Source of the DNA: a virus
Lineage: Duplodnaviria > Caudoviricetes
Direction: 5' to 3' (one strand)
IMG/VR virus record: IMGVR_UViG_3300045771_000049
Span: 88,148 to 152,147 of that record
DNA length: 64,000 bases
The notes beneath the pieces were generated by a model. That model was not told where the DNA came from and did no database searches. It saw nothing but the letters and a program-made list of their open reading frames with translations. This document shows positions 702 through 58,418 of this stretch, piece after piece. The position numbers were made by a program, and so were the translations under genes. Within the stretch, counting starts at the first letter, position 1, and every line of letters begins with the position of its first letter.

Positions 702-703
702 AC

Positions 704-739
704 AAAGAAAAACCCCCTTACCGATCTGGCAAGGGGGTT
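704..739 (-). terminator. intrinsic terminator/attenuator directly upstream of the tRNA-Leu pair
   Basis: Minus strand AACCCCCTTGCC-AGATC-GGTAAGGGGGTT followed by TTTCTTT. Confidence 0.8.
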
Positions 740-768
740 CGCCCGTCGCGTGGGATCGGTGATGGGGG

Positions 769-801
769 TCAGGTTAAGCGTAAGGTGCGATGCGGGTGCA
801 T
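769..801 (-). CDS. putative attenuation leader peptide MHPHRTLRLT (two TTA codons)
   Basis: ATG CAC CCG CAT CGC ACC TTA CGC TTA ACC TGA, between a CATAAT -10-like box (816-811) and the terminator. Confidence 0.65.
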   Translation of the reverse strand: MHPHRTLRLT

Positions 802-17756: not shown

Positions 17757-19118
17757 TCACTGCCGTGGCAGTCCCGGCGGGATTTGCACGGATGGAGCGT
17801 AGAAATTGCGGGTTGCATCAAACGGCGTCGAAGCGGTACGGTTGGAATTCACGAAGGCGATGATGCCGACGGTCGCGGCAACGACCACAGCGGCGATTGA
17901 GAGCAGCGTGGTGGTAGACGCTTGGCTATGACGATCCGCCCCTTGCATGCGGTCCATGCGCGAGGCGAGGTCGCTGATTTTATCAGTCGTGCTGTTGATC
18001 ATCGTCACAACCTCGGTGCGCTGGATCATATTACTGGACAGATCGTTTAGCGATTGGCGGAACTCGTTGACCGTATTATGCATGGCGAAGCCACCGGCAA
18101 TGTAGGTTTTGGTGGAGGTGGATAGCTGGGCGATAACTCCGTTGCCGACCAGATCAACAGATTTAACAAAGGTCTCGCGATGATTACCGTTGATCGGGCG
18201 ACCGTCCCAAACGCCATCAGATTTAACCAACAATCTCGGTGGCCGAATTGAACCTGATTCCCAGGATGTATCGATTGTCCATAGCTCAGCAGGCCGCATC
18301 ACCTGATCGTCGATCTGTAAATCACTGGTTTGAACCCAGCGCCACTCGGCTCTTGATGTGGAAAGTTTAGGCAACACCAACCAAGGATGATGCCCATTGC
18401 AACGCACGGAGCCATGGCAGGTAGCAACCTCGAACAGCTTATCTTCCGCTAAGCTGTTTGCGGTCACAAAGGATTTTCGCAACCGACGACCACGACGCGT
18501 CACACTTTCTTCATCGAAACCGATCAGAACGTCGCCAACAACAAGTTCACCGGCGGGTCGCCACACCAGATCGGCGCATAAAACAGGGGTGCTGGCTTCC
18601 ACACAATCGAAGCGTTTTTCGACGGCTTGTTCGGCTTTCCGCACCGCTTCGTTCGAAGCGGTCAGGGCGATGCTTAGTGAATCGGTGGCCGCCTTGGAAA
18701 TCTGCTCGTTGAATTCCTTGGCCAGTCTGAACCGATCATCCACCGACCGAAAGCCATTCGTCATCACCTCTCGAAGGACTTGATTGGCCAGCAGCGAAGA
18801 TTCATTTCCAGCCTTCGCCATTGTCTCGGTCGCGATTTTATTGTAATCAAAGCGCTCTCTGATAAACGCTGTGGTGAGGTCTTGACGTTCCTGGAGCCGC
18901 CGATCGATCTCATCGATGATGGCCCGTCTCGCCTCGTCGATTTGGCCCATCCGTCGTTCCAGCGTATCAACACGCTCATGGAACGAATGCAGATCATGCG
19001 CTTTTAATTCCTTGAGGGCTTCCAAACGTGTGTCGAGATAGACTCGCAAGGAATTCACCGTCCAGGTTGCGTCGATTGTAGCACTGGTATCGTTCAGCGC
19101 CGGATTGGGCTCGATCAT
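17757..19118 (-). CDS. coiled-coil protein with C-terminal transmembrane helix, interrupted by a mini-intein
   Basis: Heptad-rich exteins (AVEKRFD|TVNEFR), TM segment LLSIAAVVVAATVGIIAFV. Confidence 0.8.
   Translation of the reverse strand: MIEPNPALNDTSATIDATWTVNSLRVYLDTRLEALKELKAHDLHSFHERVDTLERRMGQIDEARRAIIDEIDRRLQERQDLTTAFIRERFDYNKIATETMAKAGNESSLLANQVLREVMTNGFRSVDDRFRLAKEFNEQISKAATDSLSIALTASNEAVRKAEQAVEKRFDCVEASTPVLCADLVWRPAGELVVGDVLIGFDEESVTRRGRRLRKSFVTANSLAEDKLFEVATCHGSVRCNGHHPWLVLPKLSTSRAEWRWVQTSDLQIDDQVMRPAELWTIDTSWESGSIRPPRLLVKSDGVWDGRPINGNHRETFVKSVDLVGNGVIAQLSTSTKTYIAGGFAMHNTVNEFRQSLNDLSSNMIQRTEVVTMINSTTDKISDLASRMDRMQGADRHSQASTTTLLSIAAVVVAATVGIIAFVNSNRTASTPFDATRNFYAPSVQIPPGLPRQ
18075..18605 (-). 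mobile_element. mini-intein (177 aa)
   Basis: Block A CVEASTPVL, block B CNGHHPW, C-terminus TYIAGGFAMHN followed by +1 Thr; no LAGLIDADG motifs. Confidence 0.88.
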
Positions 19119-20750: not shown

Positions 20751-20805
20751 ATAAGTGCGGCAGAAAGCCCCGAGGTCTTTAGCCTCGGGGATGAATGCCG
20801 CTTAT
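20751..20805. mobile_element. IS200/IS605-like end hairpin remnant
   Basis: GAAAGCCCCGAGG-TCTTTAG-CCTCGGGG-ATGAATG, flanked by a GCGGCA/TGCCGC outer stem; no tnpA/tnpB adjacent. Confidence 0.55.
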
Positions 20806-29375: not shown

Positions 29376-32300
29376 TTACCCAGACTTCTGCACTCGCATA
29401 TAATACTCAACGACACGCCGAACTTGTCGGGGCGTGTAACCTTTCTGGCTCATGCGATCAACAAAGTCATTGTGTTTATCTTGATCGTCTTTGTTCGACT
29501 TAGTACCGAAACTGACGATCGGCAGCAGTTCAGCCACGTTCGAGAACATCTTCTTCTCGATCACCTTGCGCAGTTTTTCGTAGGACGTCCACTTGATGAT
29601 TTTGCCGTTGGCCCGCTGGCGCAACACAAACTTGACGCATTCCTGCCGAAAATCCTTCGGATTGGCGATGCCAGCCGGTTTTTCGGTCTTCTCCAACTCG
29701 CCGTTCAGATATTCGCGGTTGAACATTGTGCCAGTGTCGGCGTCCTTATAATCGATATCGTCCATCCAGTGGTCTGCATAGACTATATACCGATCGAACA
29801 AGGTTTGCCCGAATTCGTCATAGGCTTCCAGGTAGGCCATCTGGATTTCGTTGCCGATGAACTCGACGTAGCGCGGCGCCAATTCCGATTTGATATAGTC
29901 GAGATACATTTTCTCGGCGTCGTTGGGGAACTGTTCGCGGATCAACGCCCGTTCCAACATGAACAAGAGATGCACCGGATCGGCCGACACTTCGTCGGTG
30001 TCGTGGTTGAACGTCGCGGATAAGACCTTGAACGCGAACCGGGTTGACGTGCCGGTCATCCCCTCATCAACGCCCGCCGCTTCGCGGTATTCCATCACCG
30101 GCTTGGCGCGCGGATCGGTCTCCTTGATGTTTTGCCCGTCATAGACACACAGTTTCGCCCACTGGGTGGAATTCTCATGCTTCGCCAGCCGCGTAAGGAC
30201 CGAGAATTCGGCCAGCATCTGCAAGGTCGCCGGGGCACACGGGGCATTCTTCAAGTCAGACGACTGAAGCATCTTCTCATAGATCAGGCGCTCATCGGTG
30301 GCGCGCAGGCAATACGGCACCTTGATCACACAAATCCGATCGATGAAGGCTTCATTATTAGAGTTTGCCTTAAAGTTCTGCCATTCGCTCTGATTCGAAT
30401 GCGCCACGACGATACCGTTGAACGGGATGGCGGAAATGGCTTCAGTTCCCATATAATTGCCTTCCTGCGTCGCCGTCAGCAACGGATGTAGCATTTTTAT
30501 CGGAGCTTTAAACATTTCAACGAACTCAAGCATGCCTTGGTTGCCCCGGCACAGACCACCTGAAAACGAATAGGAATCAGGATCATCCTGTGAGAACTTT
30601 TCCAGCTTGCGGATGTCAGTCTTGCCGACCAGGGACGAAATATCCTGATTGTTCTCGTCGCCCGGCTCGGTCTTGACGATGCCGATCTGTTCGAGCTTCG
30701 ACGGCATCACCCGCGCCACCCGGAACTTGGTGATATCGCCACCCGCCTGCTTGAACCGTTTGATCGCCCATGGACTGAGAATCATATTCAAGTAACGCTT
30801 GTCGATGCCATAATCGGCCATCAGTGCATGATACCTGGGCGCATTGAACAGACCGAGCGGCGTTTCCAGCACGGGCGACATTCCATCACCTGCACACAAT
30901 ACGTAGATCGGAAACTTGGTCATCAACTCGCCGACGCGGATCGCCAGACTCGAATTATGACTAACAATGCCGTTCGCGACGTAATTATGCGTTCCGGCAA
31001 CTTCAATATCATACATCGGCTCATCACAGTCGAGGTCAACGATATCGTCTATCTTGTCCCAGTAAATATCACCTTCGGCAAGTTCTCGCAACGATTCAGC
31101 GTTTTTGAAGAACTCAATGGCATATCGGACAAAGCCCCTGCGGGACCCGATGTTATTGTCGAGTTGAGTGCGCAAGTTTTCCTTGAGTCTGGACGTACCG
31201 TCTTTTTTTGATGCTAGTAGAGTGTTTGTGGCCTCGATCACTAAGTTCTTCGGCAAAATATCCCAACCACCCGAGTGCTTTCGTTGATCGATGACACTGA
31301 CAAACACTTCGTCACATGCCTTTTCTTTTCCATAAATACCAATTCTGGAAAGAAACGTCATGATATGATACCGATCATATATTGCAACAGTATAGGCTCT
31401 CCGTTTCTTCACCCCGTTCAAAATCGGCACGTAGGAGGAGATGCGTGCAGCGATACCAAATTTGCTTAGCAGCGAGCAGACTTGTCGAGCCATGATCTCA
31501 GACACACTGGTATAGCCGATTTCGTTATTAGTTCCGCAAGAAGCCCATCCATCAGTGGCGTATAATCTAGATAAAAATAACGCGACTTGATCTTCTTCCA
31601 ATTGGAACACGTAGTCAGGAATGAATTTTGTGTGACTTAGCGTACCGTTTAGGTTCAATTCCTCAAAACGATGGCGGATCGCCATTTCACCTTCGCGTTC
31701 ATTGATCCGGTAATAGTCGATCAGACCTGTTGCTGCTTCGATCTGCGGTTTGACGACACAGCCCAGTTCCGCAACTGCGCCTTGAAAATCAGCTACCACC
31801 GCTTCGTTGAAATTGGTGAACGTTATATTTCCAGATGCCGGTATATGCCCGTCACCCAGGATATAAGCTAGTACTTTTAGAAACGCTTCGTCGTCGCGTT
31901 TGGTACCGAACGGCAATGTCATTGCCGTAGCAATCAAATCCCCCGGTCGCAAAGCGTCAATTTGTTTCCAGCCATGGTTGGTGAATAAACGATGCGTTGG
32001 GGCTCCGCACACCTCCAAACCACGCGATGTAGTGACTTTCCAAACAGGCTTTTCATCTAGGATGAAAGTGTTGTTGACCTGCTCCGCACAGGTCCGATGT
32101 GTAGTTGCATCAGTCGAAACCACACAGTCACCGACCTGAACAGTTTCGATGGTTCTCCATGACCCATCAGCCATGGCGATCAAGGTCCCGGCACGGTGAC
32201 ATTTCGCGGTGCCGACCGGCCCCAGTAGATAGAGGATTTGCTTGCGTTCCTCCAAGCCCTGCGCGGCGTGCTTGAAGTATCCCACGATCCGCTCAATCGT

Positions 32301-32564
32301 GTCCTCCATGCCGTAGAAGTCCTCGAAGGCTGGATAGACTCGCACGGTGCGATTGGCGAAGATGCGCGACAGCCGAGGATCGGCCGAGGTATCAAGCTTG
32401 ACGGGATCACCAATGGCCGCAACCATGCGTTCGGCGGGTGTGGCATAGGCCATCGAATCGGTGCGACAGAGGTCCAAATAGTCCTGGATACTCATGTACG
32501 TGGTTTCGGTAATTTGAAAGTCGTTTTTGAGAAGGGCTACGATGTCCATTTGCTGTCCTGACAA
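29376..32564 (-). CDS. yeaG: PrkA/YeaG AAA+ serine kinase-family protein, intein-containing
   Basis: FYGMEDTI, GLEERKQILYLLGPVGTAK|SS Walker A, EPGDENNQDIS, EFVEMFK; true start may be ATG 32549; TAAATA at 32579-32574. Confidence 0.94.
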   Translation of the reverse strand: MSGQQMDIVALLKNDFQITETTYMSIQDYLDLCRTDSMAYATPAERMVAAIGDPVKLDTSADPRLSRIFANRTVRVYPAFEDFYGMEDTIERIVGYFKHAAQGLEERKQILYLLGPVGTAKCHRAGTLIAMADGSWRTIETVQVGDCVVSTDATTHRTCAEQVNNTFILDEKPVWKVTTSRGLEVCGAPTHRLFTNHGWKQIDALRPGDLIATAMTLPFGTKRDDEAFLKVLAYILGDGHIPASGNITFTNFNEAVVADFQGAVAELGCVVKPQIEAATGLIDYYRINEREGEMAIRHRFEELNLNGTLSHTKFIPDYVFQLEEDQVALFLSRLYATDGWASCGTNNEIGYTSVSEIMARQVCSLLSKFGIAARISSYVPILNGVKKRRAYTVAIYDRYHIMTFLSRIGIYGKEKACDEVFVSVIDQRKHSGGWDILPKNLVIEATNTLLASKKDGTSRLKENLRTQLDNNIGSRRGFVRYAIEFFKNAESLRELAEGDIYWDKIDDIVDLDCDEPMYDIEVAGTHNYVANGIVSHNSSLAIRVGELMTKFPIYVLCAGDGMSPVLETPLGLFNAPRYHALMADYGIDKRYLNMILSPWAIKRFKQAGGDITKFRVARVMPSKLEQIGIVKTEPGDENNQDISSLVGKTDIRKLEKFSQDDPDSYSFSGGLCRGNQGMLEFVEMFKAPIKMLHPLLTATQEGNYMGTEAISAIPFNGIVVAHSNQSEWQNFKANSNNEAFIDRICVIKVPYCLRATDERLIYEKMLQSSDLKNAPCAPATLQMLAEFSVLTRLAKHENSTQWAKLCVYDGQNIKETDPRAKPVMEYREAAGVDEGMTGTSTRFAFKVLSATFNHDTDEVSADPVHLLFMLERALIREQFPNDAEKMYLDYIKSELAPRYVEFIGNEIQMAYLEAYDEFGQTLFDRYIVYADHWMDDIDYKDADTGTMFNREYLNGELEKTEKPAGIANPKDFRQECVKFVLRQRANGKIIKWTSYEKLRKVIEKKMFSNVAELLPIVSFGTKSNKDDQDKHNDFVDRMSQKGYTPRQVRRVVEYYMRVQKSG
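30954..32201 (-). mobile_element. intein (416 aa) with LAGLIDADG homing endonuclease, inserted in Walker A
   Basis: CHRAGTLIAMADG start, THRLF block B, LAYILGDG and LYATDG motifs, MYDIEV..HNYVANGIVSHN end, +1 Ser. Confidence 0.94.
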
Positions 32565-35063: not shown

Positions 35064-36398
35064 TCAATCCTGCTTACGGCTGTGGTAGAGCCACAACATC
35101 TTGTACAACTGGTCTGCGTTCAAATCGGCGATCAGATCGCGCAGTTTCTGCGACGGCTCATTCGGATGGTGGATACGGGCGAGTGCCAGCATCGCGGCTT
35201 GGGCCTTCGGTCGAGAATAGGTAGCTTTGAGCTTGGCGATACCGGCCGCCTCCGTGCCGGGGACGCCCGCAACGGCACGGTCACCATGGACCGTCTCATC
35301 CCAGGGCTGCAAATAATTCGGATCACCCTTGGTATCCACCACCTGCACCTGAGTGATAAAACTCTTTGCGTTGGTGATTTTGTTCGTTTTACTGGTAACG
35401 ACCCATTCCCATTCGTAGTTGTCGCCCAGTGTGCCGTATTCATCGTCATCATCATGTGGTGTGACGGTGTGGGATGCGGCCAGTTTGTGCCCATCTAACG
35501 TGAGGACCACGCCCCATCGGCCGCCCTGGGATGACATTCTGGCAAACCGAATCGCGACACTTTCATCTTCGGTGGTACTAAACCCGAGATTGCCTTGATC
35601 GTAGCTGTCGATGTCGAAGGTGTTGCTGGCGCGCATGTCCAGATACTGTTGGAGACCCGTGCCGTGATACAGCGTCTCGGGCACGCCGTTATGGCCGTGT
35701 CGCAAGGTCTCGCCCAGAATGTCAGTATGTGAGTTCACTCTGCCGTCGAGCAGCTTATCGCTAGACGTTTTTGATGGATCGAAGCTGGCGTGTCGGGTGC
35801 GGATATTGTTTGGATGAAACACCACGTAGCTGTCGCCTTTGCCTTCGACACGATTGCCATAAACCAAACCGTCATAGCCTTGTCGCTCGGCGCTGGCTTG
35901 GATCGCGCGCCAAAAATCTGCGGCACTGGCTGTGAACTTGGCTTGTTGTTCGCTCTTAGACTTGTTCAGAGCGCCCCATTCACCACCCGCTGCGCGTCGC
36001 AATCGATCTGTTTGTTTCGCCAAGTCGAAAATACGATCATGATCCTCGTTATTCGGATCAAAACCTTTAGTGTTCAAACACCAAATCTTGGCGCGGTTCA
36101 TATAGGTCGTTCGCAACGTAGAAAACATATCATAGACACGCAGGGGGTTATGCAGACGCAGTTTGACGGGAATAATATTTGCGCCCGGCTGATACTCCGC
36201 ATTGTCAGGCGAACGAAATATTGGTCTTATGACTTTATCAGCCTGTTGAAGAGTCCCGAAATGCATCCCGATATCGCCAGTTCGGCGCGGATCGAACGCG
36301 TCAAAAGCAGCGGTCGTGCCGTGGTAGGCATCGATGTTGAAGCCTCGATCATCGGCGTCTTCCACCAGCCGTATCCATCGTCTCAGGGCATTTTCCAT
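35064..36398 (-). CDS. tandem ADP-ribosyltransferase-fold protein, putative internal head protein
   Basis: Domain 1: AYHGT..FD..GMHFGT..GYDG..SYVVF. Domain 2: LYHGT..GFSTT..AIRFA..EWE. N-terminus MENALRRWIRLVE; TAAATA at 36408-36403. Confidence 0.7.
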   Translation of the reverse strand: MENALRRWIRLVEDADDRGFNIDAYHGTTAAFDAFDPRRTGDIGMHFGTLQQADKVIRPIFRSPDNAEYQPGANIIPVKLRLHNPLRVYDMFSTLRTTYMNRAKIWCLNTKGFDPNNEDHDRIFDLAKQTDRLRRAAGGEWGALNKSKSEQQAKFTASAADFWRAIQASAERQGYDGLVYGNRVEGKGDSYVVFHPNNIRTRHASFDPSKTSSDKLLDGRVNSHTDILGETLRHGHNGVPETLYHGTGLQQYLDMRASNTFDIDSYDQGNLGFSTTEDESVAIRFARMSSQGGRWGVVLTLDGHKLAASHTVTPHDDDDEYGTLGDNYEWEWVVTSKTNKITNAKSFITQVQVVDTKGDPNYLQPWDETVHGDRAVAGVPGTEAAGIAKLKATYSRPKAQAAMLALARIHHPNEPSQKLRDLIADLNADQLYKMLWLYHSRKQD

Positions 36399-38218: not shown

Positions 38219-38998
38219 TCACCAATGCATCGCTTCGAGCGCCATCACCACCTTTTGCACATCCGCTGCATAGAACCCGGCATGACTGAGGCAGCCGATC
38301 TCGACGATGCCAATGTCATCGCCTGCGACGTAAGTATCCAACACGAACGCCCTGGCGGGTTGCCACAGGGCGGCCATGCGACCGGCGAAATCGACAATGT
38401 AGGGATCGACGATATCGCTCTGGTTCGCTTGCCCGTTCAGCTTATAGTGACTGCTCGAAATGACGGCCTGATCGACAATAAAATGGCGATGCTCCTGGCC
38501 TGTCGATCGAACCGGGCCGTAGAGAATTCTGGTTTCCGCCAAGGTTCCCTGGCGGTGGAGGATATCCGCTTGCCAGACCCGAAAATCGGCGCGGGTGGAA
38601 ACGCGTCCGGTAAAGCTCTTGTCGTCGAGCGATGGTCGGATGAAGAATTTGTCAAGCTCGGGATCAGCCTCGGCGATGGTGGTGAAGGTGATATCTTGAT
38701 TGAGCAGGTAATCCCGTAAATGTGGGTGCCAGACTTCGTAGGAGAAGGCATGGTTCAACAGGCTGCCGGGTGTCCAGCCGCGCTGCATTGCGATGTGTGA
38801 GAGCATGATAGACCCATTTGTGATGATCGGTCCCGCGTGAGTCACTTCAGGGATGAGTTCGTATGTGCCGCTCACCCGCACAATTTGATGCGGGATAGCA
38901 AATCGCCGCAAAGTTTCGAGCAAGGCCAGTCGTTCGTTTTGTTGGAACAGGTCTTCTTGGACGACCCAAAACATCTCGCTATCTGCCTCCGCCATCAT
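38219..38998 (-). CDS. ATP-grasp domain protein (R2K-like)
   Basis: FFIRP..DKSFTG, EHRHFIVD, FVLD, IVEIG..AGFY. Confidence 0.75.
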   Translation of the reverse strand: MMAEADSEMFWVVQEDLFQQNERLALLETLRRFAIPHQIVRVSGTYELIPEVTHAGPIITNGSIMLSHIAMQRGWTPGSLLNHAFSYEVWHPHLRDYLLNQDITFTTIAEADPELDKFFIRPSLDDKSFTGRVSTRADFRVWQADILHRQGTLAETRILYGPVRSTGQEHRHFIVDQAVISSSHYKLNGQANQSDIVDPYIVDFAGRMAALWQPARAFVLDTYVAGDDIGIVEIGCLSHAGFYAADVQKVVMALEAMHW

Positions 38999-39324
38999 TT
39001 GTGTTCACGTTTGTTGCGCTTTAGTCTGCGCCGATCCGGGCGCGGTCGCCGGTCAAGGCTGCGCACCACCTCGGCCATGATATACATCTGCTCCTTGAAT
39101 ACCGGATGGGCCGAAAAACATGCCTCCTGTTCTCCGGCGCGCGGTTTGCGTAACCTCAGATCAAATTCATACACCAGAAATTGGGAACAGCCGATACAGA
39201 CCGTCCAATCACCCGGCTCTGGACCCCGGTTATCGGTGATGTTGGACGCCACATCAAGCAGCTTGTCGCAGTAGGGACAGCGACTTTTTGGCATCCGAAA
39301 TTCATCGTCGCGGAGCTTCGGCAT
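38995..39324 (-). CDS. zinc-finger protein
   Basis: CPYC...PEPGD..VCIGC. Confidence 0.65.
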   Translation of the reverse strand: MPKLRDDEFRMPKSRCPYCDKLLDVASNITDNRGPEPGDWTVCIGCSQFLVYEFDLRLRKPRAGEQEACFSAHPVFKEQMYIMAEVVRSLDRRPRPDRRRLKRNKREHK

Positions 39325-39370
39325 CGGTACCTAACACATTCATGGCCAATTAAACCGCATTTGCAGAGTG

Positions 39371-39725
39371 TGCAAGGTGTGCTTTTCGGCCAAAGTCTCT
39401 AAGGGCTGTAATGGTCGTCTCAGGATAACTGCCACTGTTCACAATGTCTCCCAATCAAACCCCCCATTCCTCCTGGTTGTGGGGGCAAAACCATTACTTA
39501 CTACTCACCCGGTTCGAACGTCACAGTCTGTGCTGGAGGAACGTCCTCGGTCACCCGATTCAGAAGGCCAGCTTACCGTTCCACGCCGCCGTAGCTTCCA
39601 TATCCCTGCGGCTCTACGCCCGTTTCAACAGCAGCATCCACGGGACCACTTGATTCGGCTCGCGACACCGTTTCCGCCGCTCGACACTCTTTAAAGGATG
39701 AGATTCTACCCCCACCTTCCTTGCA
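39371..39725 (-). ncRNA. putative large structured ncRNA (GOLLD/ROOL-like context)
   Basis: No credible ORF; closing helix TGCAAGG/CCTTGCA, long-range GTAATGGT/ACCATTAC, GNRA-capped hairpins (GTGA, GAAA, GGAA) on the minus strand; adjacent to a tRNA cluster. Confidence 0.55.
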
Positions 39726-39774
39726 GGCCGCTGTATGACCGATCAGCGCGCCGCGAGTCAACGATAATTTCCTA

Positions 39775-39804
39775 TTGACGTTGTTTGAGTGCATGTCTTA
39801 TACA
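39775..39804 (+). promoter_or_regulatory. sigma70-like promoter for the leader/tRNA operon
   Basis: TTGACG-18 nt-TATACA; predicted start falls at about the leader ATG (leaderless). Confidence 0.6.
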
Positions 39805-39811
39805 TATCGCT

Positions 39812-39868
39812 ATGAGCAACACACCCACCACGACCCGGCGCGACGAACGCGATACAACCACGCGGTGA
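39812..39868 (+). CDS. putative attenuation leader peptide MSNTPTTTRRDERDTTTR
   Basis: 14 of 18 codons are Thr/Arg/Asp/Glu, matching the downstream tRNAs. Confidence 0.7.
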   Translation: MSNTPTTTRRDERDTTTR

Positions 39869-39929
39869 CCGCTCATGCGCGGTCGCCAGACAGGGCGGCT
39901 GCGGTGTTAATCTCCTTTCGGAACACCCA

Positions 39930-39954
39930 GGTCGCCAATTTGGCGGCCTTTTTT
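39930..39954 (+). terminator. attenuator terminator upstream of the tRNA cluster
   Basis: GGTCGCCA-ATT-TGGCGGCC followed by TTTTTT. Confidence 0.8.
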
Positions 39955-39993
39955 GTGTTTTGGAGACCAGCCTATGCATTGATCCCTTCGTCT

Positions 39994-40067
39994 GCTCGCA
40001 TCTTCCAATGGTAGGAAACCAGATTGTCGATCTGTGAACGCGGGTTCGATTCCCGCTGTGAGCGCCA
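39994..40067 (+). tRNA. tRNA-Asp(GTC)
   Basis: GCTCGCA/TGTGAGC-G-CCA; CAGA-TT-GTC-GA-TCTG; GGTTCGATT. Confidence 0.93.
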
Positions 40068-40069
40068 AC

Positions 40070-40146
40070 GGCGCATTCGTCTAGTGGTCCAGGATTTCCG
40101 GACTTTCAATCCGGAGACGACAGTTCAAATCTGTCATGCGCCGCCA
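40070..40146 (+). tRNA. tRNA-Glu(TTC)
   Basis: GGCGCAT/ATGCGCC-G-CCA; CCGGA-CT-TTC-AA-TCCGG. Confidence 0.93.
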
Positions 40147-40166
40147 CATGTCTATCGCTCTACTAC

Positions 40167-40240
40167 GACGCTGTCGTCTAACGGTAGGATTTTTGATTCT
40201 CAGTCAACCGATCGGGGTTCGATTCCCCGCAGCGTCACCA
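40167..40240 (+). tRNA. tRNA-Glu(CTC)
   Basis: GACGCTG/CAGCGTC-A-CCA; TTGA-TT-CTC-AG-TCAA. Confidence 0.88.
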
Positions 40241-40241
40241 C

Positions 40242-40321
40242 GGACCCGTATGCCCTCGCGCTTCGAACGCGTTGAAAGGCTAACTGGATACATGCAGGTT
40301 CGATCCCTGTCGGGTCCGCCA
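40242..40321 (+). ncRNA. atypical tRNA-like RNA (TCG/Arg-like anticodon, no canonical D-arm)
   Basis: GGACCCG/CGGGTCC-G-CCA acceptor and GCAGG-TTCGATC-CCTGT T-arm; CGCG-CTTCGAA-CGCG arm only 8 nt after the acceptor; D-loop-like TAACTGGATA placed 3' of it. Confidence 0.7.
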
Positions 40322-40337
40322 AAATCAATTAAACCCT

Positions 40338-40419
40338 GCCGGGTTGGCCCAGAGGCGACGGCAGCAGATTTGTAATCTGCGATACAACATCGGGGGTTCG
40401 AGTCCCTCACCCGGCACCA
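40338..40419 (+). tRNA. tRNA-Thr(TGT) with enlarged variable region
   Basis: GCCGGGT/ACCCGGC-A-CCA; GCAGA-TT-TGT-AA-TCTGC; variable region GATACAACATC. Confidence 0.88.
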
Positions 40420-40548
40420 CTGACCCATTATTCGCCCATTGCAGGCGATAATGGTCAATAAATGGGTCATCCCTAAGCCAAACCGGATACGCGTAAATAC
40501 CTCGGCGGCGGCAACGAATGAGCGTTTCGCCCGGATGGCGAAGCGCGC

Positions 40549-42201
40549 ATGAATCTGATAACTCTCTTCGAAATGGACTGGTACGATAAGACGCCCTTGG
40601 TGGCGGTCCTGAAGGCCAACAGAGGGCGCTGGATACATTTCAGCCAGGGCGCTCCCAACCGTGATTACGCAAAAGCCACGCTGCTGCCAGACCCCGTTAA
40701 GCCCAGCGATGGGTGGAACGTTAAAGCGAACAAGCAGTATCAGCGTGACCTGTTAAAGGTGCAGCGGCAAAACGCGATCGCCAAAGTTCCCAAGATCGGC
40801 ATCAACCCTAAATCGTTTTGGAAAGACCCCAAGGGTGTTTACTTCTATCCCTGCGATTGGCTCCTGGGTGGCGCCGAGCGCATCCGCATCGCCCAACAGC
40901 ACGGTCTGGACTACCCGAACTATTATCTGGCCGACCTTAATCTGAATGATCCAGCCGGAGTCAATCTTGGCACAGTCACCTGGGATCAGGTCACCGAAAT
41001 CGCCCGGCGCAATGGCTGGCTCGACATCATGGTGGCATTCCGAAGCCAGCCGCTAAGCTATCAGAAAACTGAATTGGGGTCCTATTCGCGCCCCGAGACC
41101 CCAGGCTCGTTCTTTTGGCATTTCGTCGATCGAGAGGTCAAAGGCGGTCGGATGTCGTGGCTCAAAGCCTATTACGGCGTGAGCTTCGTGCGCGATCCGA
41201 ACCTGTCGATCATTCACAGCAATGAACCTGATCAGGTTTTGGTGATCAATCCGAAGATCATCAAAAATGTGACGCTGGCCACGAACCAGCCGGTTGGCTT
41301 CCAGAACCGGGAGAAGATGGAGCACTGGATGTTCGCCTTGATGACGGTCATCAAGGCGGTCCGGGGGGACTATGGCGGCACTCTGATATGGGAAAAGAAG
41401 AAGCCCAAACTCTCCTTCGAGAAGGGAATGGGGAAATTTAATTTAACGATCGCCGCTAGTAGTTACAGCGCCTCAGGCATGGAGCCCGGCCTGACGATGA
41501 CCTACACGTACGGACGGGCTGAAAATTCGATGTCGGTTGGCCGCAAAGACCTCGAAACCAAGACCTCTGAACAGATCGTCGATCTGCTGAAATCGAAGGT
41601 GGACTTCATATCGCGGCTGCGAACAGACTTGCTCTTTAAGCCGGTGATGACCATCGCTGATGGTAAAGTTTATATGAAAAATCGGCTCAGCAATCTGTCT
41701 GACTTAGAGATCACCGAGACGATCCACAACTCCGAAGGCCCGGATAAGAAATGGTCCAGTGTCTCGATGTATGGAAAATTGGTGCATGAAGTTGAAGGCC
41801 TATCCGTGGAAACCACTATATACACCAGACTTTACGCTGATCGCATGTCGATGAGCGTCAAAGCCAAACTTGGTTTAGCGGACTTGATTTACGCATCACC
41901 CCAGGGCGATACACCAACACTCGATGACGTGGCCAACGCCGCGATCACCAATTTTGATACGATGTTCGAACGCTACGCCCCAGCCCGGCAAGCCTCTAAA
42001 TATCGTTCCAATGCGTTATTTCCATCCGATGAAGACCAATTTGCCTGTGCTGGATGGATCATTAAAAATTGTGGGATAAATCTAGATGGTGCTTTAGAGC
42101 GGCATTACCACAAACAGATCGCCGCGTTCGAAGCAAAATCAGAGCGCGAACAGGCCGACCTCATCAGAGAAATGCGCTGGGTCCTGACCAGCCGCTATTG
42201 A
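40549..42201 (+). CDS. putative internal head protein with ART-like N-terminal region
   Basis: Starts MNLITLFE; WIHFS..IGINPKS..PKGVYFYP..IIHSNEPDQ; TAAATA at 40494-40499. Confidence 0.6.
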   Translation: MNLITLFEMDWYDKTPLVAVLKANRGRWIHFSQGAPNRDYAKATLLPDPVKPSDGWNVKANKQYQRDLLKVQRQNAIAKVPKIGINPKSFWKDPKGVYFYPCDWLLGGAERIRIAQQHGLDYPNYYLADLNLNDPAGVNLGTVTWDQVTEIARRNGWLDIMVAFRSQPLSYQKTELGSYSRPETPGSFFWHFVDREVKGGRMSWLKAYYGVSFVRDPNLSIIHSNEPDQVLVINPKIIKNVTLATNQPVGFQNREKMEHWMFALMTVIKAVRGDYGGTLIWEKKKPKLSFEKGMGKFNLTIAASSYSASGMEPGLTMTYTYGRAENSMSVGRKDLETKTSEQIVDLLKSKVDFISRLRTDLLFKPVMTIADGKVYMKNRLSNLSDLEITETIHNSEGPDKKWSSVSMYGKLVHEVEGLSVETTIYTRLYADRMSMSVKAKLGLADLIYASPQGDTPTLDDVANAAITNFDTMFERYAPARQASKYRSNALFPSDEDQFACAGWIIKNCGINLDGALERHYHKQIAAFEAKSEREQADLIREMRWVLTSRY

Positions 42202-51254: not shown

Positions 51255-53072
51255 TTAAACGCCGCGAGGAGCTTTCCTGCCTCGCGGCTTCTTTTTGTCC
51301 GGTGGCATGTCCTGGAAAGCGGGATTGCACTTTACGACACGCCATTTCCCAGCGTCATACACGCGCGGTATCTGTTCGGCAATGGCCATTTGTCGCTCTG
51401 TCATACCGGTGCCAACATATTTGGCGAATCGCTTGCTTGATTTACGAAGATTAAACTTGTGAATGCGCCGATTAGCGATTACGTACATGTAATCCGGGGC
51501 GATTTCTTTCTCGACCGTAAAGCCAAGGATCGTGTATAGCGCGCCCATGCTCCATCGCAGATCAACAAATGACTTGATGGTCTGCCAATTATACATGCGC
51601 TCAAACGCACACAATAACCGACTCGCACCACCCACGACCGAATTTTTGCTGGCATAACGAACCAATTCCCACCCTGCGGATGTTCGTTCTGTAAACGACA
51701 TACAAGCCACCAAATCGTGCTGGCTCCGCAGCCCGAGATGCACGGTGGCAGAGGCGCGACCGAAAACATGGTGAATGTCGTAAAATCCGGCCGCCTCGTG
51801 ATGGCTGATCGGTCCGAGAACGCACGATCGCGCATAGGTCTTGTGAGTGGTCAGACCAAGCCGGTGTCTGATGGTGGCGATCACTGCCTCAGGGTGGTCG
51901 ATCCATTCATCTTCGAAAACTTGAAGCAAGGTGATATTTTGGCGCAACGCCATCAATCGTTTTTTAGCATGATAGGCGCGATCCCGGCCGAATGCTTCGC
52001 TATGCCAGATCGCCCCACCGAATTCGACTCCAAGTCGATGTGTCGGAAAGTAATTATCAATCTGCTGCCAACAACGGCGATCGTTGTCTTTACCTTCTGG
52101 AATCAGAATGTCAACATTCCGCTCTGGTGGCATTATTTCACGTGCTAGACAGTCGGCAAAAGCGTTTTCGGCTGCACGATGATCACCGCCCGTATAATCT
52201 AGTTCGATGTTCCATCGATAGGCATACCGATGAATCAGAGACGGATCATATCCGGTTTCTGCGGCAATATCACCAGCGCGTCTGCCGGTGAAACGCCGGG
52301 CGAAATCGGTCTGGTCGATGATGCGATGTTGCGGCAGGATATGAAGCTGGGCGATATGCCCGCCGAACCGCTGTTCCATAGTCTGCTTCATTTTGTGCCG
52401 CACTACAGGTGAACAGGCGGGTGCGACACCGCCATAGCGAAGCAAGTTCGTCGCTTGGATTTTGGCTTGCACGACCGGATGCCGCGCCACATTGGATACC
52501 CCCCACGTGGCCCTTACCCCCGCTCGCATACGGACCTGATGTTCCGGTGAATGACTGATGTGGTCCACACCGTGGTTCAGTTGCGTCTTGTCGCGGATAA
52601 CCGCTTTGATCTCGTCAGACGCAAACACGTTTTTGGCGCCATATCTGACGAGATTGGTGGCCTCGGCCGTCTCGCGACGACTGACCAGTGATCCGGTGTT
52701 AGGCACCCCGTAGCGGTCCAGGCAGGTATCACGGATTTTTTCTTTTACATCCGCTGCCTGTGCGGCATTGGCGACGCCTCGTTTGGCAAAGTTGGTCGCC
52801 TCCGAAGTGGCTAGGAAATGCTCCATAAAACACGGGCAGACACGGCCGTTGCCGCAAAACTTCCATCCATCCGCAATCCGCACGATCGACCGATCGCGAC
52901 CGGCTGCACAGATGGCCGGACCATGCAACAACGTTGCAGCGGCACGACGAATATCGGTTTCTTCGATCTGACCCAACGCCAATTGCAATTCGGGGGTCAG
53001 CTTTGTAACCCACCCACCGCGCCACCGCAACAAATGTTGTCGCAGCACTTCCGCCAAAGGGTGGGTCATCAT
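51255..53072 (-). CDS. homing-endonuclease-like protein (repeats + Vsr/EDxHD-type nuclease + GNAT-like C-terminus)
   Basis: TxxxRYG repeats, VEFGGAIWHSE, VFEDEW, ELVRYAS..VVGGASRL, DLRWS.G.LY. Confidence 0.75.
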   Translation of the reverse strand: MMTHPLAEVLRQHLLRWRGGWVTKLTPELQLALGQIEETDIRRAAATLLHGPAICAAGRDRSIVRIADGWKFCGNGRVCPCFMEHFLATSEATNFAKRGVANAAQAADVKEKIRDTCLDRYGVPNTGSLVSRRETAEATNLVRYGAKNVFASDEIKAVIRDKTQLNHGVDHISHSPEHQVRMRAGVRATWGVSNVARHPVVQAKIQATNLLRYGGVAPACSPVVRHKMKQTMEQRFGGHIAQLHILPQHRIIDQTDFARRFTGRRAGDIAAETGYDPSLIHRYAYRWNIELDYTGGDHRAAENAFADCLAREIMPPERNVDILIPEGKDNDRRCWQQIDNYFPTHRLGVEFGGAIWHSEAFGRDRAYHAKKRLMALRQNITLLQVFEDEWIDHPEAVIATIRHRLGLTTHKTYARSCVLGPISHHEAAGFYDIHHVFGRASATVHLGLRSQHDLVACMSFTERTSAGWELVRYASKNSVVGGASRLLCAFERMYNWQTIKSFVDLRWSMGALYTILGFTVEKEIAPDYMYVIANRRIHKFNLRKSSKRFAKYVGTGMTERQMAIAEQIPRVYDAGKWRVVKCNPAFQDMPPDKKKPRGRKAPRGV

Positions 53073-55166: not shown

Positions 55167-56381
55167 ATGAACAAGCTGTTTGAAACACAGTGGAAACAGA
55201 CCAAGGCAGCGCTTTGCGAGGGCCGCGATCTCACCCACAATCAAGACGGGACCGCAAATCCCAACAAGCGCCAGACCATGGACACCATCCTGGAAAATAC
55301 CCGGCGTGAACTACGGCTGATGGAAGCCGCGACCAATGGCGCGACGAACGCCTCATCCGTGGCGACGCTGAACCGCGTTATTCTTCCCGTTATTCGCCGT
55401 GTCATGCCCACGGTAATTGCAAATGAAATTATCGGCGTCCAGCCGATGACAGGACCAGTCGCGCAAATCCATACGCTGCGTGTGCGTTATGCCGATACTA
55501 TTCCGGCAGCGGGCGGCGGAATTTCGGCTGGTGCCGAAGCATTGTCGCCGTTCAACATCGCCAATTACTACTCTGGCAATGGTTCTGTAGCCACTCCGGC
55601 TGCTGCGTCTACGACCTATCTTGAAGGCACTGGTGGAAATCGTCTGAGCATTCAGATTTTGAAAGAAGTCGTCGAAGCAAAGACCCGCAAGCTGGCGGCT
55701 CGTTGGACCTTTGAAGCGGCACAGGATGCGCAAGCACAGCAAGGGCTTGACATCGAGGCCGAGATCATGGCGGCACTAGCGCAGGAAATAACGGCCGAAA
55801 TTGATCAAGAAATCATCAACTTCTTGATTGCTCTACCCGGCGCTGCTACTAGCACCTTTGCTATGTCCAATGTCACGGGAACCCCCACTTTTGTTGGAGA
55901 CGTGCATGCTGCACTTGCGATCCTGGTAAACCGTCAGGCAAACCTCATCGCGGCAAGAACTCGTCGTGGCGCAGGCAACTGGTGCGTAGTATCCCCGACT
56001 GCTTTGACCATCTTGCAGTCTGCGACGACTTCCGCCTTCGCCCGTACTACTGAGGGAGTATTTGAAGCCCCAACTAATACCAAGTTCGTTGGCACTTTGA
56101 ACAATGCAATGAGGGTCTACGTCAATCAATACGCTGCCGATAATACCCCGGTGCTAATTGGTTACAAAGGCAACGATATCGATGCGGCAGCGTTCTATTG
56201 CCCATATGTACCATTGACGAGTTCCGGCGTGGTGATTGATCCCCAAACGTTCGAACCAGTCGTTAGCTTTATGACACGTTATGGTTTCATTGCTTTAACG
56301 AACACAGCCTCCAGCCTTGGCAACGCGGCTGACTATGTTGGACTCGTTGCAATAGACACATCGAGCTTGACCTTTATTTGA
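55167..56381 (+). CDS. major capsid protein (T4 gp23-like)
   Basis: IRRVMP..GVQPMTGP, AKTRKLAARWTFEAAQD, EIDQEI, FYCPYVPL, FMTRYG. Confidence 0.97.
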   Translation: MNKLFETQWKQTKAALCEGRDLTHNQDGTANPNKRQTMDTILENTRRELRLMEAATNGATNASSVATLNRVILPVIRRVMPTVIANEIIGVQPMTGPVAQIHTLRVRYADTIPAAGGGISAGAEALSPFNIANYYSGNGSVATPAAASTTYLEGTGGNRLSIQILKEVVEAKTRKLAARWTFEAAQDAQAQQGLDIEAEIMAALAQEITAEIDQEIINFLIALPGAATSTFAMSNVTGTPTFVGDVHAALAILVNRQANLIAARTRRGAGNWCVVSPTALTILQSATTSAFARTTEGVFEAPTNTKFVGTLNNAMRVYVNQYAADNTPVLIGYKGNDIDAAAFYCPYVPLTSSGVVIDPQTFEPVVSFMTRYGFIALTNTASSLGNAADYVGLVAIDTSSLTFI

Positions 56382-56714: not shown

Positions 56715-58418
56715 ATGCTCGAACGTTTAAATCAACTGATCGCAAAAGCGGGCCTTAAACAATGGTCATTCGCACTTCGCAGAGACCATGAGTTCCTCGA
56801 CTGGATCGATGCTCAAACTACGGATATGCCCTCTGACACGTCATTCCCGATCCGCGTGTTTTCGGCCGTGCACAATGAACGTCCCCTGTGTCCGCAAGGT
56901 CGGCAACGGACCTTGAAATCGATTGTTGATGGCTGGAGATTCTGTGGGAAGACCGGCCAGTGCGCTTGCGCCAGGGAATCGGTATCAGCCAATGTCAGTA
57001 AAACCAAATCGCTGGACACCGAAGAAGAAAGATTAGCCACTCAGCAAAAACGCGAACAAACGAATTTAGGGCGCTATGGTCACGTCAATACTGGTCAGAC
57101 CGAGACGGCCAAAACTGCCCATGCCGCGTTCTACTCGAACCAAGACAACATCAAGGCCCAGCTTCGGAAGCAGGTCGCCACCATGCAACAGAGATACGGC
57201 GTTACCAACCCCGCCCATCTGCGTGCGGTCGGCGAGCAGAAACAGATGACCATGCGAGTTCGCCATGGCGTCAGCAATCCGATGCAAAGTAAATCAATCG
57301 CCGTCCGATCGATTGCGACCCGCTTGGCAAACGGCTACGCCGAGTCCTATTATCGGAGAAACTACGATCGGATGAAGACGCGACTGATGGAGGATTGTAA
57401 GCTAATCCTGCTCACATCATTCGAAAATTATACCGGAGTGGCCGGAGCGCCGCTGGTGTCATTAAGTTGCCCGACCTGCGCACGAAACATCGAATGGCGA
57501 ATCGATTATGGTCATCAGCCGCGCTGCGCGGCATGCAATCCTCGTCCAATCAACTACAAATCCAAAGAGGAAATCGAAGTTTATAATTACATCTGTTCCG
57601 ATTTAGGGATCGCCAGAGTCATCTCCGGCGATCGCAGACTCATCGGCCCCTACGAGATCGATATTCTCAGCGAGGAACACAAATTAGCCATTGAATATTG
57701 CGGTCTCTACTGGCACAGCGAGAGTCAACGAATCAATCGGAACTATCATCTCAAAAAACACAATGCGGTGGAAAAACAGGGCTATCGTCTTCTTACGTTG
57801 TTCAGTGACGAATGGTTAGATCACTCTGAAATCGTCAAGAGCAAAATCGGCCATCTGTTTGGCTGTACTCCGGACCGTCGCTTTGCCCGCAGCCTTCAGG
57901 TTGCCGAAATCAACAATAAGGAAGCTGCGTGTTTCTACACAATCGCCCACATTCAAGGGCCGGTTGACGCCACCAAGCACCTCGCACTTACTGACCGTGG
58001 CAAGATTGTTTGCGCAATGTCATTCATCAATGCCAGAGAAAGTCGCGGTCTGATGTCTGGGGCATCTGAATTGGTTCGCTATGCTTCCCTGCCTTTTATC
58101 ACCGTGGTTGGCGGCGCCTCACGGTTATTCGCCCATTTCATCAAAGATCACTCGCCGATCGCGGTTATCAGCTATGCAGATCGACGATGGAGCGACGGCG
58201 GCCTGTATCGAAAACTGGGATTTACGTTGGAGCACACCACAGCGCCAGATTATAGCTATGTCGAGAATCATCGATATCGCCATTTCCGTTTCGGCTTCCG
58301 CAAGGATGTCTTGAAAAGTGTTCTGGGCGACTTTGACGATACCGAATGGGAGGTGATGCGCGCTCTTGATTACGATCGCATCTGGGACTGCGGCAAATAC
58401 CGCTTTGTCTGGTCATAG
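56715..58418 (+). CDS. homing-endonuclease-like protein (paralog of 51255-53072)
   Basis: GWRFCG, RYG repeats, CxxC pairs, AIEYCGLYWHSE, LFSDEW, VVGGASRL, RIWDCGK. Confidence 0.78.
   Translation: MLERLNQLIAKAGLKQWSFALRRDHEFLDWIDAQTTDMPSDTSFPIRVFSAVHNERPLCPQGRQRTLKSIVDGWRFCGKTGQCACARESVSANVSKTKSLDTEEERLATQQKREQTNLGRYGHVNTGQTETAKTAHAAFYSNQDNIKAQLRKQVATMQQRYGVTNPAHLRAVGEQKQMTMRVRHGVSNPMQSKSIAVRSIATRLANGYAESYYRRNYDRMKTRLMEDCKLILLTSFENYTGVAGAPLVSLSCPTCARNIEWRIDYGHQPRCAACNPRPINYKSKEEIEVYNYICSDLGIARVISGDRRLIGPYEIDILSEEHKLAIEYCGLYWHSESQRINRNYHLKKHNAVEKQGYRLLTLFSDEWLDHSEIVKSKIGHLFGCTPDRRFARSLQVAEINNKEAACFYTIAHIQGPVDATKHLALTDRGKIVCAMSFINARESRGLMSGASELVRYASLPFITVVGGASRLFAHFIKDHSPIAVISYADRRWSDGGLYRKLGFTLEHTTAPDYSYVENHRYRHFRFGFRKDVLKSVLGDFDDTEWEVMRALDYDRIWDCGKYRFVWS

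Follow-up and report, generated by a model that had tools for sequence, protein, structure and literature searches.

The reason for which phages carry transfer RNA (tRNA) genes has been a matter of debate for decades, and little is understood of how these genes are regulated; the locus described here raises the question of why a short open reading frame (ORF) and an intrinsic terminator should stand between a promoter-like sequence and a cluster of phage tRNA genes. The locus occupies positions 39775-40419 of the window, a 64,000-nucleotide (nt) stretch corresponding to bases 88148-152147 of the 152-kb IMG/VR record IMGVR_UViG_3300045771_000049. A promoter-like pair of hexamers, an ATG, an ORF rich in a few amino acids, a terminator and tRNA genes follow one another in the expected order inside 220 nt. 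The element is likely to be a ribosome-mediated (leader-peptide) transcription attenuator of tRNA genes, by which the phage probably restricts the synthesis of these tRNAs to times when ribosomes are slow to read Thr, Arg, Asp and Glu codons.

The -35-like hexamer TTGACG (39775-39780), read from the sequence of the plus strand, is followed after an 18-nt spacer by the -10-like hexamer TATACA (39799-39804, plus strand), which stands 7 nt before the ATG at position 39812; the position of the -10-like hexamer predicts a transcript start at or beside this ATG. The leader ORF (39812-39868, plus strand) consists of 18 codons and a TGA (39866-39868), and 14 of the 17 codons after Met specify Thr, Arg, Asp or Glu (7, 4, 2, and 1, respectively), the same composition as given in the first-pass annotation of this DNA, which had been made from the sequence alone. 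A window comparably rich in cognate codons occurs at 3 places per 304,000 six-frame positions of the genome, and the empirical p value of this leader against random genome windows is 0.002-0.003. Since a Shine-Dalgarno sequence is absent before the ATG of all four leader ORFs considered here (the other three are introduced below), they look leaderless, and the ORF at 39812 is presumably so. Downstream of the ORF, a terminator scan identified an intrinsic terminator (39929-39955, plus strand), with a hairpin of nine pairs, six of them G-C (39929-39949, -14.5 kcal/mol), running into T6 (39950-39955), as had been proposed. A promoter scan found no promoter-like site between the terminator and tRNA-Asp, so the tRNA genes must be reached by read-through of the terminator. 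Both long ORFs upstream of the leader unit (38219-38998 and 38995-39324) lie on the minus strand, and the unit opens a plus-strand block after them; the terminator is therefore not simply the end of an upstream gene.

The tRNA genes behind the terminator were called with ARAGORN and with Rfam models (53-60 bits for the four canonical tRNAs). On the plus strand they are tRNA-Asp (GTC; 39994-40067, 59.5 bits), tRNA-Glu (TTC; 40070-40146, 57.4 bits), tRNA-Glu (CTC; 40167-40240, 55.6 bits) and tRNA-Thr (TGT; 40338-40419, 53.4 bits). Between the last two lies a tRNA-like gene (40241-40321, plus strand) with a UCG (Arg) anticodon loop, predicted acceptor, anticodon and T helices and an encoded CCA, in whose predicted fold no D hairpin appears, so that it is not a canonical cloverleaf. 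Neither ARAGORN nor the Rfam tRNA model called it, and its only match was a sub-threshold one to tRNA-Sec (26.9 bits). Of the set of tRNAs originally proposed, Asp, the two Glu and Thr are accordingly supported by both programs, and the Arg-like(TCG) member is an uncalled, D-arm-less gene. As a separate observation, Arg codons are interspersed in every one of the four leaders and His codons in two of them, and no tRNA set accounts for these, except possibly the UCG gene.

The same design recurs throughout the genome. The 152-kb record contains 12 tRNAs called by ARAGORN, arranged in four clusters (Trp-Phe-Tyr-Cys, Val-Met, Leu-Leu and Asp-Glu-Glu-(Arg)-Thr), two of which lie outside the window, and every cluster (4/4) is preceded by an ATG-initiated ORF rich in its own amino acids; the cognate-codon-rich short 5' ORF typical of leader-peptide attenuators is thus found at each of them. 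The Trp-Phe-Tyr-Cys leader has 30 codons with the core FFCCWRY (empirical p at most 0.0005), and the Val-Met leader has 32 codons, the last 13 of which include six Val and one Met (p = 0.003); the two leaders outside the window lie at genome positions 18149-18241 and 87726-87824. The Leu-Leu leader (769-801, minus strand) has 10 codons, both of its Leu codons being TTA, a codon that accounts for 0.5% of codons in the long ORFs (p = 8e-4 for at least two TTA in nine codons before correction, and about 0.05 after a crude correction). Measured against a null of 2000 random 260-nt windows of the same genome, the four leaders combine to a Fisher p of about 5e-7; each scores highest with its own tRNA set (4/4), and windows as extreme as theirs occur at 3-7 places per 304,000 six-frame positions. 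Three of the leaders also have the same promoter geometry, in which 18 nt separate TTGAC[AG] from a TA-rich hexamer that stands 6-7 nt before the ATG, with TTGAC[AG] ending 30-31 nt upstream of the ATG (chance of three in three about 1e-9); a loose promoter pattern has 28 sites in the 152 kb, and only the three leaders have that spacing to an ATG.

Intrinsic terminators also occur in the Leu unit, where the terminator (703-740, minus strand) ends 2 nt before tRNA-Leu(CAA) (701-614, minus strand; tRNA-Leu(TAA) follows at 593-508, minus strand), and in the Trp/Phe/Tyr/Cys unit; in the Val/Met unit a terminator is weak or absent. A folding model in which the ribosome masks part of the RNA was applied to these sister loci, and all three behaved in it as a stall-dependent switch should. 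For the Leu unit it gave a terminator probability of 0.00 with the ribosome stalled at the first TTA and of 0.96 with the ribosome at the stop codon. The Val/Met unit, which has a trp-like 1:2 / 2:3 / 3:4 arrangement, gave a terminal hairpin with a probability of about 0 for stalls at codons 21-29, 0.9 at the stop and 0.78 in free RNA. In the Trp/Phe/Tyr/Cys unit the values were 0.07-0.11 with the ribosomal A site on Trp or the next codon, and 0.7-0.95 elsewhere. The first-pass annotation had cited the Leu locus as a second example of the same control; its TTA leader and terminator are indeed present, and the case is weaker than assumed, a mobile cassette having entered at the ATG. This 1.2-kb methyltransferase cassette (799-2027) has a DNA methyltransferase (812-1933, PF01555) as its sole gene. 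Its inverted repeats, at 807-833 and at 1993-2019, are 27 nt long, and the Leu-leader ATG lies within its 8-bp target duplication. A 38-codon Leu-rich ORF chosen by the scoring at this locus was discarded as a by-product, as it runs out of the inserted cassette.

The region between the end of the leader ORF and the T tract contains five pairing segments, A to E. Segment A (39864-39872, plus strand) overlaps the last sense codon and the stop codon and can form nine base pairs (bp) with segment B (39879-39887, plus strand; -18.4 kcal/mol). Segment B can pair instead with segment C (39894-39902, plus strand) in a second 9-bp helix (-17.5 kcal/mol), and C can pair either with B in the OFF state or with D in the ON state. 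A small hairpin, GGTGT/ACACC (39903-39927, plus strand), which is worth -7.4 kcal/mol alone, stacks within the C:D antiterminator and extends it to -21.4 kcal/mol, and D (core 39930-39936) pairs with E in the terminator hairpin. The alternation rests on one 7-mer, which is present both in B and in the 5' arm of the terminator (D) and has its complements in A, C and E; of 20,000 dinucleotide shuffles, 3 contained another copy of the terminator-arm 7-mer along with two complementary upstream sites. The ON fold combines A:B with C:D at about -39.8 kcal/mol and the OFF fold combines B:C, the small hairpin and D:E at about -39.4 kcal/mol, so that the two are equal within 0.5 kcal/mol. The helices A:B, B:C, C:D and D:E predicted at first pass all exist in these calculations, with corrected positions for D (39930-39936) and for AACACC (39922-39927). 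The helices that would serve as mutually exclusive antiterminator and, at the ORF end, as anti-antiterminator exist, are isoenergetic and are non-random; they have no covariation behind them, a generic control does not single out these terminators, and which fold results would depend on folding kinetics. In the folding model, the best fold with a ribosome on codon 8 and a chain grown to 39940 is A:B plus C:D, and in untranslated RNA the stretch of Thr codons can pair with C, which restores the terminator.

From this anatomy we infer a switch that would work as follows. Transcription would begin at the ATG at 39812 or immediately beside it, and as RNA polymerase moves on through segments A to E a ribosome would be translating the 18-codon leader. 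With fast decoding, the ribosome at the end of the ORF would cover or melt A, so that B:C and then D:E form and the polymerase stops at T6 (OFF); the overlap of A with the last codon and the stop is what would let a finishing ribosome free B for C and leave D for the terminator. A ribosome held on the Thr, Arg, Asp or Glu codons (approximately codons 4-14) would let A:B form first and then C:D, with E remaining single-stranded (ON). The polymerase would then enter tRNA-Asp, the two tRNA-Glu genes, the UCG tRNA-like gene and tRNA-Thr, and the precursor would be cut into tRNAs by the usual processing enzymes. Such a unit would constitute a feedback loop in which a set of tRNAs is made when the decoding of its own amino acids is slow, and the other three tRNA clusters of the phage would follow the same design. 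Loss of host tRNA, a high codon demand by the phage and amino-acid shortage are candidate triggers. That the helices succeed one another exactly in this manner has about an even chance of being right; the central proposal, a leader that chooses between antiterminator and terminator, has gained from the four matched clusters, the geometry shared by three of them and the isoenergetic folds.

Matched leaders are also found in other phages. On the basis of its major capsid protein (55167-56381), which shares 76.5% identity with its counterpart in Sinorhizobium phage Phosso and 62.9% with the one in Agrobacterium phage Atu_ph07, the record is a fragment of a giant soil-type phage of the Phosso/Atu_ph07 group; its completeness is estimated by CheckV at 36% and its G+C content is 50-58%. 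The same leader scoring was applied to three published huge-phage genomes picked as sharing a PrkA-like gene with this phage (LR745206, LR756504 and LR756502), and matched leaders were detected in each (permutation p = 0.00025, 0.0007, and 0.008, respectively), including a 16-codon ORF with seven Gln codons ahead of three tRNA-Gln genes. Canonical terminators follow the matched ORFs in these genomes. The first-pass annotation had staked its proposal on a correlation between leader codons and downstream anticodons across arrays, and the correlation holds in these three phages. No clear matched leaders were found in six controls, namely Ralstonia phage RsoM2USA, the closest cultured relatives Phosso and Atu_ph07, and three complete IMG/VR capsid relatives, and the tRNA genes of these control phages are scattered or mixed by amino acid. 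Positive and control phages differ in this way, so the system is patchy within the clade and tied to tRNA clusters sorted by amino acid.

A further relative, IMGVR_UViG_3300047462_000407 (7200-9800), whose capsid protein is 80% identical, carries TTGACA, 17 nt, TATAAA, 7 nt and an ATG, which opens a similar, apparently leaderless ORF of 19 codons with an ERDTEER core ahead of tRNA-Glu and tRNA-Asp. This leader, likely a homologue, has fewer Thr codons and no tRNA-Thr behind it, consistent with the rule that links leader and tRNA set. Separately, the G+C content of this relative is about 30% in the 4.2 kb examined, against 54% here, an unusually large gap for such close capsids. Searches for relatives that could reveal covariation yielded little: a search of cultured-phage DNA gave only two short tRNA matches, tblastn of the gene downstream of the tRNAs against cultured phages gave no match, and neither did searches of IMG/VR with the flanking proteins. 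A metagenome scan recovered two contigs of the same phage, one with an identical leader and the other beginning inside an insertion, along with one 48%-identical gene that has no tRNAs beside it.

Several observations weigh against attenuation of the kind described, or against its simple form. The promoter proposed at first pass is present as far as hexamers and spacing go, and TATACA lacks the conserved final T, so that a consensus promoter scan makes no call; each of the three leaders with the promoter geometry has an imperfect -10-like hexamer. At equilibrium, stalls at codons 2-7 lead the folding model to prefer an extended hairpin of B:E plus C:D whose end likewise falls at the T tract, so that the ON state is a claim about folding kinetics. 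A ribosome stalled in the second Thr run (codons 15-17) would cover A, which is a misfit with the simple model. Upstream pairing of a terminator 5' arm is common in this genome: the four loci rank between 9th and 90th among 150 terminator-like hairpins, and such pairing taken alone was dropped as evidence, the terminators of tRNA leaders not being separable from the 150 other hairpins. The only other copy of the leader, from another sample, is identical and thus lends the helices no covariation support. The last hairpins of the Val/Met locus and of the IMGVR_UViG_3300047462_000407 locus have no U tract, and the cassette inserted exactly at the Leu-leader ATG has moved the former upstream DNA of that unit 1.2 kb away. 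Enrichment in Arg was rejected as support for the tRNA-like UCG gene, given that all four leaders are well supplied with Arg codons. Under standard wobble, the downstream anticodons do not read three ACC and two CGC codons of the Asp/Glu/Arg/Thr leader, nor five GTC codons of the Val leader. These ACC, CGC and GTC codons match the general codon usage of the phage, and the match between leader and tRNAs holds at the level of the amino acid more than of the codon, which is more easily reconciled with a sensor of decoding across a group of amino acids than with a sensor of a single cleaved isoacceptor.

Against this background, a codon-sensing leader with a different output deserves consideration, in which translation of the leader would govern Rho-dependent termination, processing by RNase P or RNase E, or the stability of the precursor. 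The Val/Met leader and the Glu-Asp leader of the relative lack a U tract and yet refold in a stall-dependent manner, and the position of the Leu terminator, 2 nt before the tRNA, is such that leader structure could affect 5' processing; such an output is nevertheless unlikely, because the last hairpin at the present, Leu and Trp/Phe/Tyr/Cys loci is a textbook intrinsic terminator with T5-T6, and the huge-phage leaders likewise precede such terminators. The logic of the switch might also be reversed, smooth translation leading to read-through and stalling or lack of translation to termination, so that tRNAs would be made only under healthy translation. With five pairing segments the outcome is set by which helix forms first, and in the equilibrium model of this locus several stall positions do yield a hairpin with its end still at the T tract. 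The models of the Leu and Val/Met units, on the other hand, place the terminal hairpin at the stop and the competing structure at cognate-codon stalls, the overlap of A with the stop codon means that a terminating ribosome would promote B:C and leave D for the terminator, and a codon-matched leader would be pointless under reversed logic, which makes this reading quite improbable.

Explanations that dispense with translation fare worse. It is very unlikely that the RNA acts untranslated, either as a T-box-type leader that reads anticodons or as a small RNA set free by termination. An RNA pairing with anticodons should likewise contain triplets that look like codons, and terminated attenuator RNAs are described as acting in trans in Sinorhizobium (PMC6614838). 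Rfam searches, however, returned only tRNA matches, with no T-box or other family at E values up to 1 in 39000-41500 and up to 0.1 at the sister loci; at three or four independent loci, the cognate triplets share one frame whose opening ATG follows a -10-like hexamer by 6-7 nt; this frame closes with a stop codon that overlaps segment A; and any action of the released RNA in trans would come on top of attenuation rather than supplant it. Plain coincidence would mean that an ordinary promoter and an insulating terminator precede tRNA genes and that the ORF arose by chance where T is scarce; it finds some footing in the shortness of the ORF, in the rarity of stop codons in any frame of a T-poor stretch and in the ease with which alternative pairings arise near terminators. 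Coincidence is scarcely credible in view of the match at all four clusters with its combined p value, the shared promoter geometry, the rarity of the helix chain among shuffled sequences and the correlation reproduced in other phages and absent in the six controls.

Attenuation by a translated leader has to be set beside the systems in which it is known. Classical attenuators comprise the trpL, hisL, leuL, pheL, thrL and ilv leaders of enterobacteria and trpL of Sinorhizobium, and leaders for several amino acids are known from the thr and ilv operons. The present element resembles them in that its ORF is rich in regulatory codons and is followed by a terminator, and its predicted helices include an antiterminator that excludes the terminator and, where the ORF ends, an anti-antiterminator, so that the position of the ribosome would pick the fold. 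It differs in being phage-encoded and apparently leaderless, in having five pairing segments rather than four, and in recurring as a set, with one unit for each tRNA cluster in the genome. Known outputs of the attenuator family are enzymes, transporters and synthetases; here the genes downstream are tRNA genes and not genes for biosynthesis, transport or synthetases, so that the loop would act on decoding capacity and not on amino-acid supply. tRNA genes as output are the point of novelty and extend the known outputs of the family. The attenuator of pheST, encoding phenylalanyl-tRNA synthetase in E. coli, with its pheM leader, is an instance of attenuation of a component of the translation apparatus; the likeness lies in leader-peptide attenuation of that apparatus instead of biosynthesis, the difference in that a synthetase protein and one amino acid are concerned there, and tRNAs and four amino acids here. 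T-box riboswitches also tune transcription attenuation of translation-related genes to a specific tRNA state, but the T-box binds uncharged tRNA directly and is untranslated, whereas the element described here is an ORF.

Leaderless mRNAs that open with a short sensory ORF enriched for a particular amino acid have a counterpart in the leaderless polycysteine short ORFs of mycobacteria, in which several loci form a ribosome-directed regulon; those ORFs control translation of downstream protein genes by unmasking a ribosome-binding site, in contrast to the terminator before tRNA genes considered here (Canestrari et al., 10.1101/834739). Phage tRNAs have been reported to evade tRNA-targeting defences through sequence features (van den Berg et al., 2023, PMC10264068); such counter-measures to the cleavage or depletion of host tRNAs would supply a biological reason for tRNAs made on demand. 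In full-text literature searches no publication describing the control of tRNA genes by a leader peptide was found, and a paper examined for motifs upstream of tRNAs does not describe it either.

If attenuation is confirmed, the phage would gauge decoding speed separately for each amino-acid group and top up tRNAs on demand, a feedback on translation capacity itself; the literature searches found control of this type only for amino-acid and synthetase genes. It would also provide a rule for annotation, in that the composition of a leader predicts the tRNA set behind it, account for the sorting of tRNA genes by amino acid in some giant phages, and offer compact parts for probing the coupling of leaderless translation to termination. 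In a more speculative reading, which is less likely than not, the four leaders may be viewed together as a phage 'decoding-stress regulon', in which leaderless sensors respond to the loss of a host tRNA group and induce exactly the replacement block of tRNAs. Such loss might be caused, for example, by anticodon nucleases or by host shut-off, and the leaders would then amount to a counter-defence that is inducible by way of attenuators and that unrelated giant phages have acquired in a patchy manner, perhaps more than once.

Several further features of the genome lie around these loci. Just before the window, at genome positions 88031-88102, an odd tRNA-Met(CAT) is called by ARAGORN and not by Rfam at E values up to 0.1. 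The tRNA unit of the present locus is closely preceded by an ORF resembling ART-PolyVal ADP-ribosyltransferases (35064-36398, minus strand) and one resembling R2K-type ATP-grasp proteins (38219-38998, minus strand). The PrkA/YeaG-like serine-kinase ORF (29376-32564, minus strand; 1062 amino acids) aligns with its relatives as two pieces that cover 62-66% of the ORF, and its residues 158-214 include a weak terminase-like stretch; it may contain an insertion or a fused extra domain. Two ORFs resembling homing/HNH endonucleases (51255-53072, minus strand, and 56715-58418, plus strand) lie on either side of the major capsid gene. Finally, in contig Ga0302281_10005046, which represents the same phage in another metagenome, an insertion of 1.18 kb separates tRNA-Thr from the next gene (window site 40490-40501). 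The insertion corresponds to positions 1762-2941 of piece L040 and contains a 46-nt match to window positions 20756-20801, which suggests a second family of mobile cassettes.

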